This document shows positions 2,858 through 43,236 of a DNA stretch of 60,028 nt, in pieces; position 1 is the first letter of the stretch; each line of letters starts with the position of its first letter. Below the pieces are notes generated by a model. It had not been told where the DNA came from. It saw nothing but the letters and a program-made list of their open reading frames with translations, and did no database searches. The position numbers and the translations under genes are program-made. The DNA is from Parcubacteria group bacterium (GTDB lineage: Bacteria; Patescibacteriota; Minisyncoccia; 2-02-FULL-40-12; IGHO2-01-FULL-4-A). The stretch is taken from contig JBDRCU010000038.1 in NCBI GenBank assembly GCA_043821485.1, positions 1 through 60,028 on the forward strand. The letters are read 5' to 3'.

Positions 2858-4110
2858 GATTCATTTTGAACAAAATATCGATTGTAATTCTTCTGGTGCT
2901 TTTTGTGGCTATAGGTATGAATTTCGCTTTGGCTGCAAGCAAGGAAGATCGCATTCTTGATTTGAGGCAACAGATCGAAGAGCTTACTAGGCAAGCAGAA
3001 CAATTCAGAAAAAATGTTTTGGACAAACAGCAAGAATCAAATACTTTATCCCGTGAGATTTCAATAATTAATAATCAGATTTCAGCTCTCCAAGCAGAGA
3101 TAAACAGAACTTCCAATGAAATAGAAACAACTGAAATTGAGATAGTAGACCTTGAGGGTCAAATTTTTGATACAGGACAAACCATAGATACGCACAAAAG
3201 AACATTAAGCGAACTCATGGTTTCCATGTACGAACGTGATCAGATGGGGATGGTCGTAATGCTTCTTAGTAATGAACACCTGTCAGATTTTGCAGATGAA
3301 GCACAACAAATTGAAACGCTGAATGCGCAGTTATCAAAAATAGTTACTGATTTAAAAGAACAGAAGAATTTTCTTGAGGATAATAAGAATGAGCTTTCAG
3401 ATAAGAGGGGTAATCTACTCGTACTTAACGATCAGCAATTCAATCAACGAAACTCGCTTGGTTCTAGCCGTAACCAAAAAGATAATGTCCTGAGTGAGAC
3501 AAAAGGAGAAGAAAAGAAATATCAGGAATTACTGAATGAGGCTGAACAGAAGAAAGCCCAATTTTTTCAGGAGCTACAAGCGCTTGAAAGTGAAGCACGT
3601 GAAACAGGAACATTTATAGTCCATGTAACAGCCAGTAATGTACCTGCAAGAGGAACAGAGCTCTATCAGTGGCCATATGAAAAATTTGTTAATACACAGG
3701 GATACGGATATACAGCTTATGCAAATCGTGGAGCCTATGGAGGGGCCCCGCACAATGGAATAGATATTGTTAGTGGTTATGCTAGTCCAATCAGATCAAT
3801 AGGGGATGGTAATGTTTTGACTGCAGGTTTTAATAATGGATTTGGAAACTGGGTAGCAATTCAACATGACAATGGCATGGTCAGTCTCTATGCTCATATG
3901 AATTCTCCTGCACGTCTTGGGAATGGTACGGATATTAAAGCAGGGGATACAATAGGGTTTGAAGGTTCCACAGGGAACTCGACGGGGTCGCATCTTCATT
4001 TGAGTTTATATACCGATTTCTTTACATATATAAGGCAAAGTAATGGCCAGATATACTTTAATTATTTTGATGGTACGGTTAACCCATTTGACTATTTGGT
4101 AAAAAGATAG
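2854..4110 (+). CDS. Secreted coiled-coil protein with C-terminal M23 peptidase domain (murein hydrolase)
   Basis: Signal/TM N-terminus, long coiled coil, HNGID, YAHM, GSTGNSTGSHLH M23 motifs. Confidence 0.88.
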   Translation: MRFILNKISIVILLVLFVAIGMNFALAASKEDRILDLRQQIEELTRQAEQFRKNVLDKQQESNTLSREISIINNQISALQAEINRTSNEIETTEIEIVDLEGQIFDTGQTIDTHKRTLSELMVSMYERDQMGMVVMLLSNEHLSDFADEAQQIETLNAQLSKIVTDLKEQKNFLEDNKNELSDKRGNLLVLNDQQFNQRNSLGSSRNQKDNVLSETKGEEKKYQELLNEAEQKKAQFFQELQALESEARETGTFIVHVTASNVPARGTELYQWPYEKFVNTQGYGYTAYANRGAYGGAPHNGIDIVSGYASPIRSIGDGNVLTAGFNNGFGNWVAIQHDNGMVSLYAHMNSPARLGNGTDIKAGDTIGFEGSTGNSTGSHLHLSLYTDFFTYIRQSNGQIYFNYFDGTVNPFDYLVKR

Positions 4111-37146: not shown

Positions 37147-37175
37147 GAGTCCAATCGCCTCCAATATTCGAACCT
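37147..37175. repeat. Degenerate B repeat (left boundary)
   Basis: GAGTC-N13-TATTCGAACCT: same 29-bp length and both ends conserved versus B. Confidence 0.5.
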
Positions 37176-37183
37176 CTCTTACA

Positions 37184-37462
37184 TCATTCGGATGTGGGAT
37201 ATTGCTCTAATGTTTTCAGGGTCGCTTGCACGGATGAATTATCTGTGTTCAGAAAAGTTACAGTTTCATACGTCTCTTTGAGTCTGGTAATAACTTCATC
37301 GGCCCACGAAGGCGCCAAAACCTTTACGCCCTCAAAATCAACTTCGATCGGCTCTGTTTTTGATAAATCGCGCGTGATATACGCAGACAACGCTAAATAT
37401 GCTTCGCGGCCTGCGGGTCGAGATACCAATATATCACCAAATTTTTTGAGTTCAATGCGCAT
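37184..37462 (-). CDS. STAS-like DUF4325 protein
   Basis: L.SRPAGREA, DFEGV.V.APSWADE pattern; coupled to upstream ATPase-like gene. Confidence 0.75.
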   Translation of the reverse strand: MRIELKKFGDILVSRPAGREAYLALSAYITRDLSKTEPIEVDFEGVKVLAPSWADEVITRLKETYETVTFLNTDNSSVQATLKTLEQYPTSE

Positions 37463-37464
37463 TT

Positions 37465-38046
37465 TTAAAATGACAAAATCGCTAAACAACCCCGTATTTT
37501 TTCTCTCTCCTTTATCTCGATTGTAGTATTAAGTATTGCTTCCGCCGATCCAGAGCTAAAACTGAGATGCAATTTTTGATCTGATACGCTTTGCTTTACG
37601 AATTTAAGACCATTACCTCTGTTCTCTGGTGCACGTCCCGATAAACGCTGGGTAAAAGCTACCTCAAGTGCTTCTTTATCGTCCAATAAATCAGGCTTCA
37701 CCTTCCTAAGTGTTGTAAATACCCCACGTCCCCGGTCGGCCAAAACAATTTGTTTAGTATCTGATTCTAAATAGTACCCAAAAAAAATTCCAATCACATC
37801 GGGCCAGTTACCTATATTATGATCAAATGAATTGTTACCAATCTCACCGACAATTGCAGAGACAAGATAGGCAGTGTCTTCAGGGATCTGATCATTGTCC
37901 AATAGTTCGCTTGTTAATGAGTCTAATCGTGTTTGAAAAACATCTCGCGTCTCGCAATAGTATGGCTTATCAAGCGTAGTTACAAGAATAGGCTCGTCTT
38001 GCATCCATGCCGTAGCATTTTCTTGTAGTTTTGTCGTTTCTTTCAC
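37465..38046 (-). CDS. Histidine-kinase-like ATPase domain protein (anti-sigma/GHKL-like)
   Basis: EIGNNSFDHN, ADRGRG, GRAPENRGNGL motifs; GTG start. Confidence 0.7.
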   Translation of the reverse strand: MKETTKLQENATAWMQDEPILVTTLDKPYYCETRDVFQTRLDSLTSELLDNDQIPEDTAYLVSAIVGEIGNNSFDHNIGNWPDVIGIFFGYYLESDTKQIVLADRGRGVFTTLRKVKPDLLDDKEALEVAFTQRLSGRAPENRGNGLKFVKQSVSDQKLHLSFSSGSAEAILNTTIEIKEREKIRGCLAILSF

Positions 38047-38117
38047 AATATCTAAAGTATAGGATTAGCGGTAATAAATAGCAATATTATGATTCTCATA
38101 AGGACCTTCATTCGTCA

Positions 38118-38146
38118 GGGTCAGGAAGTACTAGCTGTTCGAACCT
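38118..38146. repeat. B repeat copy 1 (29 bp)
   Basis: GGGTCAGGAAGTACTAGCTGTTCGAACCT. Confidence 0.9.
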
Positions 38147-38186
38147 ATATTGTACAAATATAAATTTAATTATGAACAAAATGAGT

Positions 38187-38558
38187 CTATGATATTGATA
38201 TCATAACAAGAATCAAGAAGACAGTAATCGGCACTAGAGACAAGATACTCCGTCTTAGACCCTCTTCGTGAATGCCTCTCTTTCTTTTTAATCTTATTTG
38301 TATAATTCCTACAATCGAAAATATTGACCCCCAAAAAATGATTATCAAAAATATGAATTTGACTATATCTAGTACAGAGTCAATCAGATAATATATATCT
38401 GAATCAGACACCACTCTTCCCTCCATATCTGTAATAACAGGTGGTTCGATTCCAATACCAATTATAATTGCGAAAATAATCAAAACAACACCAATCAGTA
38501 CTATCCAAGAACCTATCAATGCAAACCTATTTAATTTTCCTTTATTGTCGGTATCCAT
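38187..38558 (-). CDS. Hypothetical membrane protein (3 TM)
   Basis: 123-aa hydrophobic ORF between A and B repeats. Confidence 0.7.
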   Translation of the reverse strand: MDTDNKGKLNRFALIGSWIVLIGVVLIIFAIIIGIGIEPPVITDMEGRVVSDSDIYYLIDSVLDIVKFIFLIIIFWGSIFSIVGIIQIRLKRKRGIHEEGLRRSILSLVPITVFLILVMISIS

Positions 38559-38577
38559 AATACTTTATAAGGTACCT

Positions 38578-38696
38578 CAAAATCCTATCATAATTCTATG
38601 ATCTCTACTATCTACAGTAAGCATGGTGCCGTCGTAAGGGATGTTAGAAGTATTTTTGAAAGGATGGATGACGCTACAGTCTACATTCCTACGATT
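38578..38696. repeat. A repeat copy 1 (119 bp)
   Basis: CAAAATCCTATCATAATTCTATGATC...GGTGCCGTCGT..GGGATGTTAGAAGTATTTTTGA...ACGATT. Confidence 0.9.
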
Positions 38697-38699
38697 TGA

Positions 38700-39032
38700 C
38701 TACTCGATTTGTATAACGGCAGACTTTTTGGCTCCATATTTATGTTTCATCCATTTCCTACATTCTTCAAGCATCCATAATCCATATTCGTTGTCTGGAA
38801 CAAGTTGAAAATCAACAGACCATTCTTCTTTATTCTTTTTTGATGGGGTCTTCAATAAAATAATTACATCTATATCCTGCGGTCTCGCTTTTGCTGTGGT
38901 AAAGCTACCAAGCAGGTGAATAGATGAGATGGGAAGTATTTTTTTTAATTTCCCTATCACGCCTTTAGCGTTTTTCCACATTTCTTTACGGTACTTCGTA
39001 TTAAGCATTTCTGGTGGCATAAATGATTTCAT
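38700..39032 (-). CDS. Minimal nucleotidyltransferase (MNT-like) domain protein
   Basis: LLGSF......DIDV...VD Pol-beta-type signature, 110 aa. Confidence 0.7.
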   Translation of the reverse strand: MKSFMPPEMLNTKYRKEMWKNAKGVIGKLKKILPISSIHLLGSFTTAKARPQDIDVIILLKTPSKKNKEEWSVDFQLVPDNEYGLWMLEECRKWMKHKYGAKKSAVIQIE

Positions 39033-39087
39033 AAATAAATTAATTAATCTATTCTTAACTCTTTATTTTTCCAACATCCCATAGGCA

Positions 39088-39116
39088 GGGTCAGGAAGTA
39101 CTAGCTGTTCGAACCT
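39088..39116. repeat. B repeat copy 2
   Basis: Identical to copy 1 over 33 bp (39086-39118 vs 38116-38148). Confidence 0.9.
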
Positions 39117-39177
39117 ATTTAATATATAAAATCTATAAAAATTTAAAAATATCACTGATTACTCTATACTCAAAATT

Positions 39178-39405
39178 TTATTTTAATAACTTCTCAAAAT
39201 CTTTTTTACTAAGCTGAACATCTCTTATTATTTTTCTTAAAAGTCCCTTGCCTATCTTTTTATGATCTGGGACTGTGATGGGCTTCTTACTCCCGTCTTG
39301 ATGATGCAACCTTATATGACTACCTTTTTTGCGGACAATAAAATAACCCATTTTCTCAAGGACTCTAATGATGCGAGATCCCGACAATTGTTTCAGAGAC
39401 GGCAT
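39178..39405 (-). CDS. hicA: HicA family toxin
   Basis: LEK.GY.IVR.KGSH..L.H......TVP.H..I.KG.L.KI. Confidence 0.88.
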   Translation of the reverse strand: MPSLKQLSGSRIIRVLEKMGYFIVRKKGSHIRLHHQDGSKKPITVPDHKKIGKGLLRKIIRDVQLSKKDFEKLLK

Positions 39406-39411
39406 TATTAG

Positions 39412-39657
39412 CTACAAGGTAATAGTATGTAAACTCATTTCCTGCGGTTTATACGAATTCACTATTTCACGATTTTCTTTCTCTTCAAGAATAAGGTTAA
39501 TTACTTCTCTTATGCCAACTAAGGCATCGTCCAATGTTTTTCCCTGGGTATAACACCCATCAAATAATGGACATTCTATAACATAAAAACCATCTTCGTC
39601 TTTTTCTACAAATAAAGGTAACTGGCGTCCGCGAATTGTAGTTAATGTCTTACGCAT
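39412..39657 (-). CDS. hicB: HicB family antitoxin (short form, upstream of toxin)
   Basis: EKDEDG.YV..CP.F.GCYTQG.TLD.AL..I.E; ATG 39657. Confidence 0.85.
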   Translation of the reverse strand: MRKTLTTIRGRQLPLFVEKDEDGFYVIECPLFDGCYTQGKTLDDALVGIREVINLILEEKENREIVNSYKPQEMSLHTITL

Positions 39658-39717
39658 AAAAAGAGTATACCACCCCAAAAAACTCTATGCAACCTCTACT
39701 CTTCTTCTACAAATCTA

Positions 39718-39746
39718 GGGTCAGGAAGTACTGGGTATTCGAACCT
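39718..39746. repeat. B repeat copy 3
   Basis: GGGTCAGGAAGTACTGGGTATTCGAACCT. Confidence 0.88.
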
Positions 39747-39772
39747 GTATTAGCTCATGAGTCTAAGTGAAA

Positions 39773-40180
39773 TTACAATGCTCTTATTTTTCCAACTACA
39801 TCGTAATACACATTCAAACCATAATAGTCGAGAGGGAGAGAGATGAATGAAGGCACTTGTTTTTCAAGAAGTACTCCTATCGCATAATCATTACTCTGGT
39901 CATCTGGTGCGTGCGGATCTAAAAGTCCTACCTTTGAAAGGCCTACCCCGTTAATATACTCCGACCAGGGTTCTTTGCTCATATATTCAACAACAAACTT
40001 ATTTTGAATAATTTCTGCTTCTTCTATAGTAATGGTGTCTGCCTCAGTAGTTTTTGAGTAATCTCTTTCTGTAAAATTGAGGACTGCATCCTCAGATGAT
40101 TTATCTCGAATTACGTAATAGAAAATCAATGAAAATAAAATCAGTATGATTATGATTAAATAAATTTGTCTTTTCTTCAT
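39773..40180 (-). CDS. Membrane-anchored hypothetical protein
   Basis: N-terminal TM; ATG 40180 lies 3 nt from A repeat copy 2. Confidence 0.7.
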   Translation of the reverse strand: MKKRQIYLIIIILILFSLIFYYVIRDKSSEDAVLNFTERDYSKTTEADTITIEEAEIIQNKFVVEYMSKEPWSEYINGVGLSKVGLLDPHAPDDQSNDYAIGVLLEKQVPSFISLPLDYYGLNVYYDVVGKIRAL

Positions 40181-40183
40181 ACT

Positions 40184-40302
40184 CAAAATCCTATCATAAT
40201 CCTATGATCTCTACTACCTACAATAAGCAGGGTGCCGTCGTGGGGGATGTTAGAAGTATTTTTGAGAGATTGAACGATGCGAGTGTTTACATACCGACGA
40301 TT
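40184..40302. repeat. A repeat copy 2 (119 bp)
   Basis: Same length as copy 1, high identity over the first ~85 bp; fills the whole intergenic gap. Confidence 0.9.
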
Positions 40303-40933
40303 ATGTCATAGCCGATAATATTGTTAAAATCTCTTCTGGGGTTCGTGCCAAATATTCAGGATTTTCTTTTTGTAATAGTTTTTCCGAATTATAGCCCCAA
40401 GTAATTGCAATAGTTTTTATATTTGCTTTTCTTGCTCCTATGATATCCCTATTCTCATCCCCAACATATAAAATCTCGACTGGCTTAATTTTATATTTTT
40501 TGCACATATTTTTCAAAATCAAGTGTTTGCCGAATATCGAACTACTGGAATAAATAAAATCAAAGTCATCTGCTATTCCGTATCTTCTCAAAACATTCGA
40601 GATATTTTCACTCGAGTTGCTTGAAACAATTCCGAGTTTATAATTACGACTCAGCTCTTGAAGTATCTGGGGCATATTAGGGAATAGCTTTATGTCCGTT
40701 TTCTTTCTCAGCTTAAAAAGAACATCTTTAACGAGTTTAGGAAGTTTCCAAAGAGGTATTCTTGCCCGCTTCATTAATCCCGAGATTCCATAATTCTTTA
40801 TATCATTCATATCGACATCGACTTCTTTGTCTGTTTTCAAGCCGTTCACAATATCCAGAACGTCCTTAAATGTATCTGCCATAGTCCCATCAAAATCAAA
40901 AACGATATATTTAATTGTCATTTTCTCACTCAT
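40301..40933 (-). CDS. HAD-IA family hydrolase (phosphoglycolate-phosphatase-like)
   Basis: FDFDGTMADT, VSSN, YVGDE.RD, TWGY. Confidence 0.9.
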   Translation of the reverse strand: MSEKMTIKYIVFDFDGTMADTFKDVLDIVNGLKTDKEVDVDMNDIKNYGISGLMKRARIPLWKLPKLVKDVLFKLRKKTDIKLFPNMPQILQELSRNYKLGIVSSNSSENISNVLRRYGIADDFDFIYSSSSIFGKHLILKNMCKKYKIKPVEILYVGDENRDIIGARKANIKTIAITWGYNSEKLLQKENPEYLARTPEEILTILSAMT

Positions 40934-41013
40934 TACTCAAATAGTAGCACGGCTTTTAAGATTTCTCTATCTATTTTCGACTTTCGAGACTCGAACCGAA
41001 TCTCTCAATATCG

Positions 41014-41068
41014 GAACCAAAAACACCCTGCTATTACAGGGTGGTTTTGATGTCATTCCACGATGGGT
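41014..41068. repeat. 55-bp copy of the tRNA-His 3' flank (hairpin plus TTCCACGATGGGT)
   Basis: 44/55 identical by manual count to 43113-43167. Confidence 0.85.
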
Positions 41069-41093
41069 CAGGAAGTACTGGCTGTTCGAACCT
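41065..41093. repeat. B repeat copy 4
   Basis: GGGTCAGGAAGTACTGGCTGTTCGAACCT. Confidence 0.9.
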
Positions 41094-41095
41094 GT

Positions 41096-41503
41096 TTATT
41101 TAAAATTCTTTAAAAAATTATCAATGGTTTTAACAGGGGCCCATCCTGTCCATGAAAATCTTTTTTGAAAATAATCGCTCTCTTGTCCGTTGATTTCTAA
41201 ATAGGTCCTCTTACTATTGGTTCTCATCTCTAGTGCTGCTTGTGGAAGATCGTAACTAACATCATATATAGAAATCTGTTTTCCTACCAATGTTCCCGCC
41301 AATAAATAAACTATATCACTGCCATCTTTATATTTTGGTCTAGAAAAACCAAAAAACTTTTTACCTTTATTATGACTTGTGAAACTTAGTCCATATTTAT
41401 TTGCTAGCTTATTAAGCTTATAGGTCCTAAGTAGATAGTGATTTATACAAAATACAACTGCAACAGCAAGTACTATAGATGAAATAATCCATGAAGTATC
41501 CAT
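41096..41503 (-). CDS. Membrane-anchored hypothetical protein
   Basis: N-terminal TM; ATG 41503 lies 3 nt from A repeat copy 3. Confidence 0.7.
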   Translation of the reverse strand: MDTSWIISSIVLAVAVVFCINHYLLRTYKLNKLANKYGLSFTSHNKGKKFFGFSRPKYKDGSDIVYLLAGTLVGKQISIYDVSYDLPQAALEMRTNSKRTYLEINGQESDYFQKRFSWTGWAPVKTIDNFLKNFK

Positions 41504-41506
41504 ATC

Positions 41507-41578
41507 CAAAATCCTATCATAATTCTATGATCGCTACTACCTACAATAAGCAGGGTGCCATCGTGGGGGATGTTAGAA
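41507..41578. repeat. A repeat copy 3 (72-bp core)
   Basis: CAAAATCCTATCATAATTCTATGATCGCTACTACCTACAATAAGCAGGGTGCCATCGTGGGGGATGTTAGAA. Confidence 0.88.
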
Positions 41579-41627
41579 CTAGGATTAGACAGTTTCAAGG
41601 GTATATCCGTCTTCCTATTGTTAGCAT

Positions 41628-42569
41628 TTAAGTTGCCGTATTTAATATTGCATCATAACCAATCTCACCTTTTCTAGCTAAACTTATATTTTCTTGTAAC
41701 GCTCCCTTTTTTTCTTTATCATCGCTTTGTAAAATCTCATGCATTGCCTTAAATGCCCGTTCTATATCACCTGCACCAACCGCTTCAATAAAAGCCTCTG
41801 CATCTAATGTTCTGCGAGCTTGTTCTTTGACATATTCATTCTTTAGCTCAGCGCTTTCAACAACCGCTTTACTGGCGTCAAGAAAGGCATCACGATATTT
41901 CAAATCGCCCTTTCTCATTTGATAAATACCAAAAGCTACAGCAATAAACTCCCTTGCTGACAATAGATTATTTTTTTCGCTATATCCTGCTTCATCAGAC
42001 TCTAAAATCGCACCTTTTTCCTTATTACTAAATTGATAAAGATGTGCTAACTCATGCGATAAAACATTTCGTAAATATACGTTTCTGTATGTTTCAACTG
42101 AACCCGTTGCATTATCACTATCTATCAACTCCCTCATCTCTACTCCGAGTTTATATAGCTTTCCATAAAACGTATTCTCCTTGAAAACGTCACTTGAAGG
42201 TAGGACAACAAACGGAGTCACGTCTTCAGGAACGATGGGGTATTCTTCTGAACTTCCATTAAGTTCTTGCGACCTGCCACCGATCTCAGAAGTAAAACGA
42301 GACCAGTTTTCTTTACATAAAATAACTACCCTTGCGGTAGCTCCTGCTTGTCTACTAGTATCTAAAGATTTTTTTATTTCAATTATGTGTTCAATATCTG
42401 AAGCATCAAGAGGCTCATCGCTGTACAGTTCAATCCCATTTGCAGTTAAATCTTGATTCTCATATTTACCTACATTTGTTTCAATCCAAAGAGAAGCGTC
42501 TCTGATTTGCCGTTTCCGTTTATCTTGCGGTAATTCTTGCTCTGCATTAGCCTTTGGCATTTCGTCCAT
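41628..42569 (-). CDS. Hypothetical protein with HExxH motif
   Basis: 313-aa ORF containing SHELAHLY...E. Confidence 0.7.
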   Translation of the reverse strand: MDEMPKANAEQELPQDKRKRQIRDASLWIETNVGKYENQDLTANGIELYSDEPLDASDIEHIIEIKKSLDTSRQAGATARVVILCKENWSRFTSEIGGRSQELNGSSEEYPIVPEDVTPFVVLPSSDVFKENTFYGKLYKLGVEMRELIDSDNATGSVETYRNVYLRNVLSHELAHLYQFSNKEKGAILESDEAGYSEKNNLLSAREFIAVAFGIYQMRKGDLKYRDAFLDASKAVVESAELKNEYVKEQARRTLDAEAFIEAVGAGDIERAFKAMHEILQSDDKEKKGALQENISLARKGEIGYDAILNTAT

Positions 42570-42606: not shown

Positions 42607-43074
42607 TCAGTTTCTATCTCCTAGGTCTTCATTGCTACTAAGATAAACCTTGTCATCGGAACAACTCATTGTTTGATAATCACCACGAGCATTAGTGAGT
42701 AAAACCTTAAAACCTCCTTCATCTGGATCTGGATCATCATGGAAGGTAATTTTCACTACTTTCCATCCTTTAGAAAGTCTTTCCTCTTTGTAATATGTTT
42801 GCATCGTTTCTAAGTCTTCCTTGTCACTTCCCGAAGCTTTCTTAATGGCATCGTTCCAAGTACTAAACTCTTCTTGCGGTGGTAGCAATACTTGGTCTCC
42901 TGTCTCCAAGTCGACTACTCCATGTCCTGCTAGTTCCTCTGACTCTTCAGGACTCATTTTTCTCGTACGTCCTGCTGTCTTATCTGCTGTATTCTTTGAA
43001 GGCAACGGGACTAAAGATTCTATTGTAGATTTTGCCATGTTGTATATGTTAGCTAATATCAAATTGTTGTTCAT
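42607..43074 (-). CDS. Acidic hypothetical protein
   Basis: 155-aa ORF; first gene downstream of tRNA-His, preceded by a partial A motif (43092-43108). Confidence 0.6.
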   Translation of the reverse strand: MNNNLILANIYNMAKSTIESLVPLPSKNTADKTAGRTRKMSPEESEELAGHGVVDLETGDQVLLPPQEEFSTWNDAIKKASGSDKEDLETMQTYYKEERLSKGWKVVKITFHDDPDPDEGGFKVLLTNARGDYQTMSCSDDKVYLSSNEDLGDRN

Positions 43075-43164
43075 ATCATAAGAGGATATATCAAAATCTT
43101 ATCATAATACTAGAACCAAAACCATCCTGAATTATCAGGATGATTTTGATGCGATTCCACGATG

Positions 43165-43236
43165 GGTGGCTAGAGGGAATTGAACCCTCGATTCCGCTGC
43201 CACAGAGCGGTGTTTTACCACTAAACTATAGCCACC
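43165..43236 (-). tRNA. tRNA-His(GTG)
   Basis: G-1, GTGGCTA/TAGCCAC acceptor stem, C73, anticodon arm CCGCT-CTGTGGC-AGCGG, TTCAATT loop. Confidence 0.93.

Follow-up and report, generated by a model that had tools for sequence, protein, structure and literature searches.

A non-coding repeat as a possible seam between cassettes and portable leader for expression in a small-gene array behind tRNA-His of an uncultured Parcubacteria genome

Patescibacteria of the candidate phyla radiation (CPR) are ultra-small, possess few recognized mobile elements, and have genomes that vary in small accessory genes. How such genes could be plugged in and expressed is the question raised by one 60,028-nt contig from an uncultured Parcubacteria (CPR) genome (hereafter, the window), in which an array of small genes follows the tRNA-His (GTG) gene (43164-43235). 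The array genes, like the tRNA gene and the repeats described below, are all on the minus strand. Between unrelated members of this array lie three same-strand copies of an ~120-base non-coding repeat, which we term A; a second, 29-nt repeat, termed B, delimits the modules of the array. The most likely role of A, judged from three copies in one genome, is that of a portable leader for expression and a seam between cassettes.

The A copies were verified by repeat finding, mismatch-tolerant pattern search, and MAFFT alignment. A1 (38576-38697; nhmmer E=8e-40) and A2 (40182-40303; repeat search, alignment, and nhmmer) are full copies. The former extends from the stop codon of a nucleotidyltransferase gene (NTase, DUF6932; 38700-39032) to TM123, which encodes a small membrane protein (38187-38558), and the latter from a HAD-IA hydrolase gene (40301-40933) to TM137a (39773-40180). 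A3 (41504-41627; alignment and nhmmer) is the entire gap between orf313 (41628-42569), which carries an HExxH motif and has no family match, and TM137b (41096-41503). Both TM137a and TM137b encode small proteins with an N-terminal membrane anchor. The alignment of A1 with A2 is gap-free across 121 nt and gives 85% identity, and the A3 core, comprising the 75-81 nt nearest the downstream gene, aligns to A2 with 95% and to A1 with 89% identity. An nhmmer profile of A detected no further copy in the window beyond A1-A3. A 22-nt remnant containing only the -10 region, A4 (TAGTATTATGATAAGATTTTGA; 43091-43112), matches A at 20/22 positions and is located directly after the terminator of the tRNA-His trailer, 16 nt before the ATG of orf155 (42607-43074).

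The edges of the repeat are sharp. A wholly occupies stop-to-ATG gaps of 120 nt (A2), 124 nt (A3), and 123+18 nt (A1). A2 becomes similar to A1 within the TAA codon that terminates the HAD gene (40301-40303), and the similarity of A2 and A3 stops 1-5 nt short of the next ATG (1 nt in A2); at A1, an additional 18 nt (38559-38575) separate the repeat from the TM123 start codon. A first-pass annotation of this DNA had described a repeated 119-bp element that begins, in A2, within the upstream stop codon; the alignment bears out the repetition, over 121 nt, and this start. The tight end that it gave for A2 and A3 before the next ATG is likewise seen, and A1 differs by its extra 18 nt. The 72-bp core that it assigned to A3 is too short, as the whole 124-nt gap corresponds to A2 in length and its distal part has diverged, and the remnant that it noted at 43092 is present but spans 22 nt rather than 17 bp.

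Neighboring genes do not account for the repetition. The genes behind A encode membrane proteins of 123, 135, and 135 amino acids that show no mutual similarity by BLASTP and score z <1.3 against shuffles, and homology among the three was rejected. In front of A are an NTase of family DUF6932, a HAD hydrolase, and orf313, which belong to unrelated families. The HAD and NTase genes are full length relative to their homologues, the HAD gene with an intact C-terminus, indicating that A abuts natural gene ends. The joining of one leader to three unrelated small membrane-protein genes suggests that the leader was moved or copied between cassettes. On sequence grounds, retention of 85-95% identity between different genes, together with the sharp edges, supports A as a portable or selectively maintained module and not a duplication remnant, in line with the portable unit proposed at first pass.

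Conservation within A is uneven. Identity is 89-95% over the ~80 nt adjoining the ATG, with 7 variable positions among the three copies, but over the distal ~40 nt it drops to ~65% between A1 and A2, and A3 no longer aligns there (conserved core of A3, 41505-41581; diverged distal part, 41582-41627); total length is nonetheless kept at 120-124 nt. The core contains a C-rich box (ACATCCCCCACGAYGGCACC), a 16-bp palindrome, ATCATA-N4-TATGAT (38587-38602 in A1, 40193-40208 in A2, 41516-41531 in A3), and, read from the sequence, a Shine-Dalgarno-like AGGA box (38583-38586, 40189-40192, and 41512-41515, respectively) whose distance to the ATG is 8 nt in both A2 and A3. The palindrome had been reported for all three copies, and indeed a 24-mer containing it occurs 3 times, against 0 expected in shuffles. 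Its gene strand contains two -10-like hexamers in tandem, TAGRAT and TATGAT, each matching the consensus at 5/6 positions and retained in all copies.

We favor, tentatively, a model in which A is a composite seam of boundary motif, decaying spacer, and expression leader that is functionally similar to a class of regulatory cassettes from T4-type phages discussed below. Read on the gene strand, its first part would be a boundary motif of ~12 nt (ATCGTnGGnATG), also found after the tRNA-His 3' end and after the B copy B4. A weakly constrained spacer of ~40 nt with a decaying inverted repeat would follow, and then a conserved expression leader of ~80 nt, reaching to the start codon of the gene that follows. 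This leader would supply the ribosome-binding site (RBS), in the form of the AGGA box, and probably also a weak or regulated sigma-70-type promoter (TAGRTA-16-TATGAT, or with TAGRAT as the -10). The palindrome overlapping this promoter is a possible operator, and the A copies, like those of B, could offer patches of homology for the exchange or loss of modules.

The boundary motif, M, ties the far end of A to the rest of the array. The first 12-13 nt of A1 (ATCGTAGGAATGT; 38683-38695) and A2 (ATCGTCGGTATGT; 40289-40301) resemble the 12-mer directly following the CCC of tRNA-His (ATCGTGGAATCG; 43152-43163), where it lies between the CCC end and the native trailer, and the 12-mer directly following the CCC of B4 (ATCGTGGAATGA; 41053-41064). 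When anchored matches were scored against all 20-mers of the window, p values for A1 and A2 versus the sequences after tRNA-His and B4 ranged from 0.0012 to 0.014, linking the far end of A to cassette boundaries. In two relatives with the same tRNA-His (L036 and L037), the tRNA runs straight into the CATCAAAA terminator trailer. The 12-mer is missing there, and it thus represents an addition specific to this array.

The core carries candidate transcription and translation signals. The best -35/-10 pair in A1, TAGATA-16-TATGAT, matches the sigma-70 consensus at 9/12 positions, and those in A2 and A3 at 8/12; the -10 hexamers match at 5/6 and the -35 elements at 3-4/6. What is left of A in the A4 remnant, behind the tRNA-His terminator, is precisely the -10 region, and the relative L036 has a TATAGT -10 box at the equivalent position after the homologous terminator. 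The organism was present in one groundwater metatranscriptome (X1), which supplied the RNA data as assembled contigs only at a depth of 2-6, and in one low-depth DNA run. X1 contigs with 100% identity cover a HATPase-like gene of the array, HAD, orf313, and orf155. With its end at 43081, the orf155 contig stays 10 nt downstream of the A4 remnant and does not enter the terminator, which is compatible with transcription initiation in or near A4. A promoter in A is plausible on sequence. The earlier proposal that A expresses the captured gene gains from AGGA and the good -10 hexamers, but is tempered by -35/-10 matches of just 8-9/12 and by the lack of X1 contigs from the downstream genes. A sigma-54 or extracytoplasmic function (ECF)-type promoter in the C-rich box was rejected for its unsuitable spacings, as was a conserved upstream open reading frame (ORF), whose ATG is found in A1 only.

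Other observations weigh against A as a leader and a seam. Its match to the promoter consensus is mediocre; at the consensus-scan threshold of at least 9/12, only the A1 site passes, with A2 and A3 falling below, and such matches are frequent in this AT-rich window (36 found versus 23.5 expected in shuffles). Most core genes of the genome have near-consensus TATAAT-like boxes just 4-9 nt before the ATG (examples of starts with such a box are at 1448, 19998, 27102, 28650, 43844, and 56953), which suggests that they are largely leaderless, and several array genes appear to use AGGA-type Shine-Dalgarno sequences instead; the -10 boxes in A, by comparison, stand 12 and 18 nt from the ATG. X1 contigs, at their low coverage, include none of the three genes behind A. 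The motif M is not significant after B copies B1-B3 or at the start of A3, and we accordingly discarded a universal boundary motif behind every B. Finally, A comprises three copies in one genome with no homologue for comparison, too small a set for covariation analysis.

The known systems that A most resembles are promoter-early stem-loop (PeSL) regulatory cassettes (Arbiol et al. 2010, PMC2839356; Comeau et al. 2014, PMC4122927). In T4-type phages, these ~100-bp promoter/stem-loop modules span the interval from stop codon to ATG between orphan genes and, as recombination handles, bring about the shuffling of cassettes (PMC2839356). A similarly forms a conserved non-coding module of ~100 nt that reaches from a stop codon to the next ATG, lies between unrelated orphan genes in a hyperplastic region, combines a stem-loop with promoter-like or RBS signals, and is directly repeated, such that its copies could serve as recombination handles. 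The likeness is closest at the start of the array, where the segment D4b (43106-43163), consisting of motif M and the terminator hairpin of the tRNA-His trailer, is followed by the A4 remnant, giving a terminator hairpin and then a -10 region; this is the only variant with a hairpin of terminator quality (free energy [dG] -14.2, z -4.7). In A1-A3, by contrast, the stem-loop is not a credible terminator (z ~0, no T-run). A also differs from PeSLs in its host, a cellular Parcubacteria chromosome rather than a phage, in the absence of sequence similarity, in a promoter that is predicted and matches weakly (8-9/12), and in an arrangement that includes a second repeat and a tRNA anchor. A is therefore outside the PeSL family proper, from which host and stem-loop separate it, and probably also the weak predicted promoter.

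An alternative that we consider unlikely is that A has no promoter and is the intercistronic spacer of operons in which an upstream gene, A, and a TM gene are cotranscribed, contributing only an RBS and perhaps RNA processing or translational control. Its placement in the stop-to-ATG gap, the correctly spaced AGGA, the weak sigma-70 match, and the lack of a separate RNA signal for the downstream genes all agree with this account. However, it leaves unexplained why 80 nt, far beyond the needs of an RBS, are maintained at 89-95% identity before unrelated genes, and why the -10 region alone survives in the A4 remnant behind a terminator. A structured RNA was likewise rejected: RNA folds of A are no better than those of shuffled sequences, and Rfam 15 scans gave no match near the gathering threshold for A or B.

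The arrangement of the array bears on a further set of alternatives. It comprises five modules delimited by B, covers ~6 kb downstream of tRNA-His, and has a GC content of 0.345 versus ~0.39 outside. On the gene strand, tRNA-His is followed by module 1, which contains D4b, the A4 remnant, orf155, orf313, A3, TM137b, and B4; module 2, D4a, HAD, A2, TM137a, and B3; module 3, hicB, hicA, and B2; module 4, NTase, A1, TM123, and B1; and module 5, the HATPase-like gene, a STAS-like gene, and the weak copy B0. Core genes (typA, rny, alaS, gltX, and mnmA) surround the array, and no phage matches were obtained. The B repeat (AGGTTCGAACAGCYAGTACTTCCTGACCC) has four strong copies, with 0 expected by chance: B1 (AGGTTCGAACAGCTAGTACTTCCTGACCC; 38118-38146), which forms a module end, B2 (39088-39116), B3 (39718-39746), and B4 (41065-41093), in addition to B0 (37165-37175); an nhmmer profile of B added no other copy in the window. 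Similarity among them ends abruptly at CCC. B has a T-arm-like start (CAGG-TTCGAAY...CCTG) and an ACCC end like that of tRNA-His, although ARAGORN makes no call; what B and tRNA-His have in common is limited to the T-loop-like GGTTCGAA and the terminal CCC. D4a (41007-41064) is a second copy of the tRNA-His trailer, located behind B4 with 77% identity. We also considered A as harboring a degenerate B copy, but the two share just TACTTC and CCC, and nhmmer misses the proposed copy.

With these repeats in view, A and B could bound small non-autonomous mobile cassettes (A-gene-B, 640-660 nt), A on the left and B on the right, mobilized by a recombinase or transposase encoded elsewhere, with ATCGTnGGnATG and the ...ACCC end of B forming a circle joint that matches the landing junction between tRNA-His and its trailer. 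We regard this as improbable, although a number of observations fit it. There are three such units, and their spans from A core to B end are 538, 544, and 520 nt (38118-38655, 39718-40261, and 41065-41584) despite unrelated cargo; these near-equal lengths may reflect a size constraint or coincidence. The outer edges of both repeats are sharp, the motif at the start of A recurs after tRNA-His and B4 (p ~0.001-0.014), and B opens with the T-loop-like sequence and closes in CCC like a tRNA. The trailer copy after B4 is what insertion at the tRNA end would be expected to produce. On the other hand, we found no recombinase or transposase domains in the scanned ORFs of the 60-kb window, and features of miniature inverted-repeat transposable elements or insertion sequences are lacking: there is no inverted repeat between the A ends, and no target duplication flanks A or A-gene-B. 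The A core holds a marginal inverted match to the motif (p ~0.04), in A3 only. The reads of this organism, which are too few, showed no empty site, circle, or other arrangement.

Also speaking against mobile cassettes, A and B were not found in the other genomes and metagenomes searched. Exact-pattern scans detected A in none of the GTDB representative genomes, IMG/VR, or JGI metagenomes and B in neither JGI metagenomes nor IMG/VR; BLAST of A against phage and plasmid records returned no match; and nhmmer profiles of A and B had no hit in the loci we fetched, including 33 with the same tRNA-His 3' end. The closest TypA proteins belong to Parcubacteria/Patescibacteria metagenome-assembled genomes with at most 77% identity, and gene order around TypA is not conserved. 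HAD homologues (at most 60% identity) occur in unrelated contexts that lack A and B. In favor of the composite-seam reading, the sole orf313 homologue found (40% identity; L001:1455-2519) starts 12 nt after tRNA-Arg(tcg), and an NTase homologue with 58% identity (L044:1646-2059) starts 8 nt after tRNA-Ile(tat), so that array genes recur directly behind tRNA genes in other contigs.

Relatives do provide a parallel to insertion at tRNA ends. Among the 33 genomes with the same tRNA-His 3' end, three carry mini-inserts of 65-110 nt behind tRNA-His, and one of them (L036) also behind tRNA-Arg (L036:1985-2165 and 3219-3493; L016:4000-4290; L028:1378-1516). A 19-41-nt copy of the 3' end of tRNA-His, or of tRNA-Arg, brackets each mini-insert, and several contain both a hairpin rich in GC and an acceptor-end copy in inverted orientation. 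The more specific proposal that A and B are the ends of undescribed, integrase-less Patescibacteria mini-cassettes, which insert serially at the tRNA-His 3' end through a joint (B...ACCC followed by ATCGTnGGnATG) that mimics the tRNA-His/trailer junction and in which A doubles as leader, is in our judgment doubtful. If true, such mini-cassettes would be a functional analogue of integrons that works by tRNA-end mimicry, with the recombinase encoded elsewhere.

Tandem integrative elements at tRNA or tmRNA genes are known from accretion, cis-mobilizable elements (CIMEs), and tycheposon arrays (PMC5704250, PMC3146451, bioRxiv 10.1101/2020.12.28.424599). Like these islands, the array begins precisely at the 3' terminus of a tRNA gene, duplicates the tRNA trailer at an internal junction, and consists of low-GC modules with accessory cargo, in small units without an integrase. 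The two differ in that B does not reproduce the 3' end of tRNA-His, whereas the mini-inserts of L036, L016, and L028 carry true copies; in that the units here measure 0.6-2 kb, with no integrase in 60 kb; and in that A has no counterpart in the islands.

A history in which A and B are functionless left-overs of a recent segmental duplication or gene conversion would account for the presence of every copy within 5 kb, on one strand, and in one genome. We consider it very unlikely, because the coding sequences between the repeats are unrelated while the repeats themselves are 85-100% identical with razor-sharp edges, and neutral decay after duplication would not preserve the non-coding parts alone.

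The distal spacer addresses the last alternative, that A is a folded single-strand site like the attC of integrons. The imperfect inverted repeat noted there by the first-pass annotation exists in A1 (12 bp, one bulge, one mismatch), but its pairs are broken in A2 by non-compensatory changes (A-T to C.C), and it is absent from A3. Folded as RNA or single-stranded DNA on either strand, it reaches a dG of only -1.8 to -5 kcal/mol, with z scores of -0.2 to +1.5 versus shuffles, so the single-strand folding check that had been suggested yields stability no different from that of shuffled sequences. Integrons and clusters of attC sites lacking integron-integrases (CALINs) do share with the array a one-way series of small, tightly packed cassettes with repeats of ~60-140 nt between them, toxin-antitoxin cargo, and, in CALINs, the absence of a local integrase. 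The attC explanation is nevertheless the least probable of all: despite the ~120-nt size and bulged repeat of A1, the RYYYAAC...GTTRRRY pair of R''/R' motifs is absent from either strand of A1-A3 or B (a single conserved GTTAGAA has no partner), no stable or conserved hairpin exists, A carries expression signals for the downstream gene and precedes genes rather than following every cassette (it follows just three of the gene units), and no integron integrase is encoded in the window. An attC-like recombination unit is therefore not upheld; what persists of the proposed recombination role, which we infer at most, is the weaker link through the first 12 nt of A1 and A2 and the motif after tRNA-His and B4.

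If A is taken as both leader and seam, the array has two kinds of conserved seam that alternate, A and B, and A carries expression signals up to the ATG. The array is then a testable example of the way in which foreign genes may be plugged in and expressed in Patescibacteria genomes without a local integrase. If promoter activity and exchange at A and B were demonstrated, the idea of a cassette with a portable regulatory handle, known from PeSLs and integrons, would extend to a cellular lineage in which most core genes are leaderless. The example is clean, yet it is specific to one lineage and rests on three copies.

Two further sites in the array deserve mention. The hicB-hicA toxin-antitoxin pair (39178-39678), between B3 and B2, has no A element, and directly after the hicA stop codon AATTTTGAGTAT (39160-39177) matches the 3' end of A2 (GATTTTGAGTATG) over 11 nt, a resemblance that, going by sequence, may be the scar of a lost A or a chance match. 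At the other end of the array, an X1 contig with 100% identity over the 5' region of the HATPase-like gene ends at 38114, 3 nt past the CCC of B1 and ~65 nt upstream of the gene's own promoter-like site; this end could reflect read-through or processing at B, or a coverage limit. The gene itself belongs to a two-gene region (37184-38046) in which an RsbW-like HATPase_c_2 protein, identified by a weak match (E=0.004), overlaps a STAS-like DUF4325 protein, resembling an anti-sigma factor and antagonist pair.

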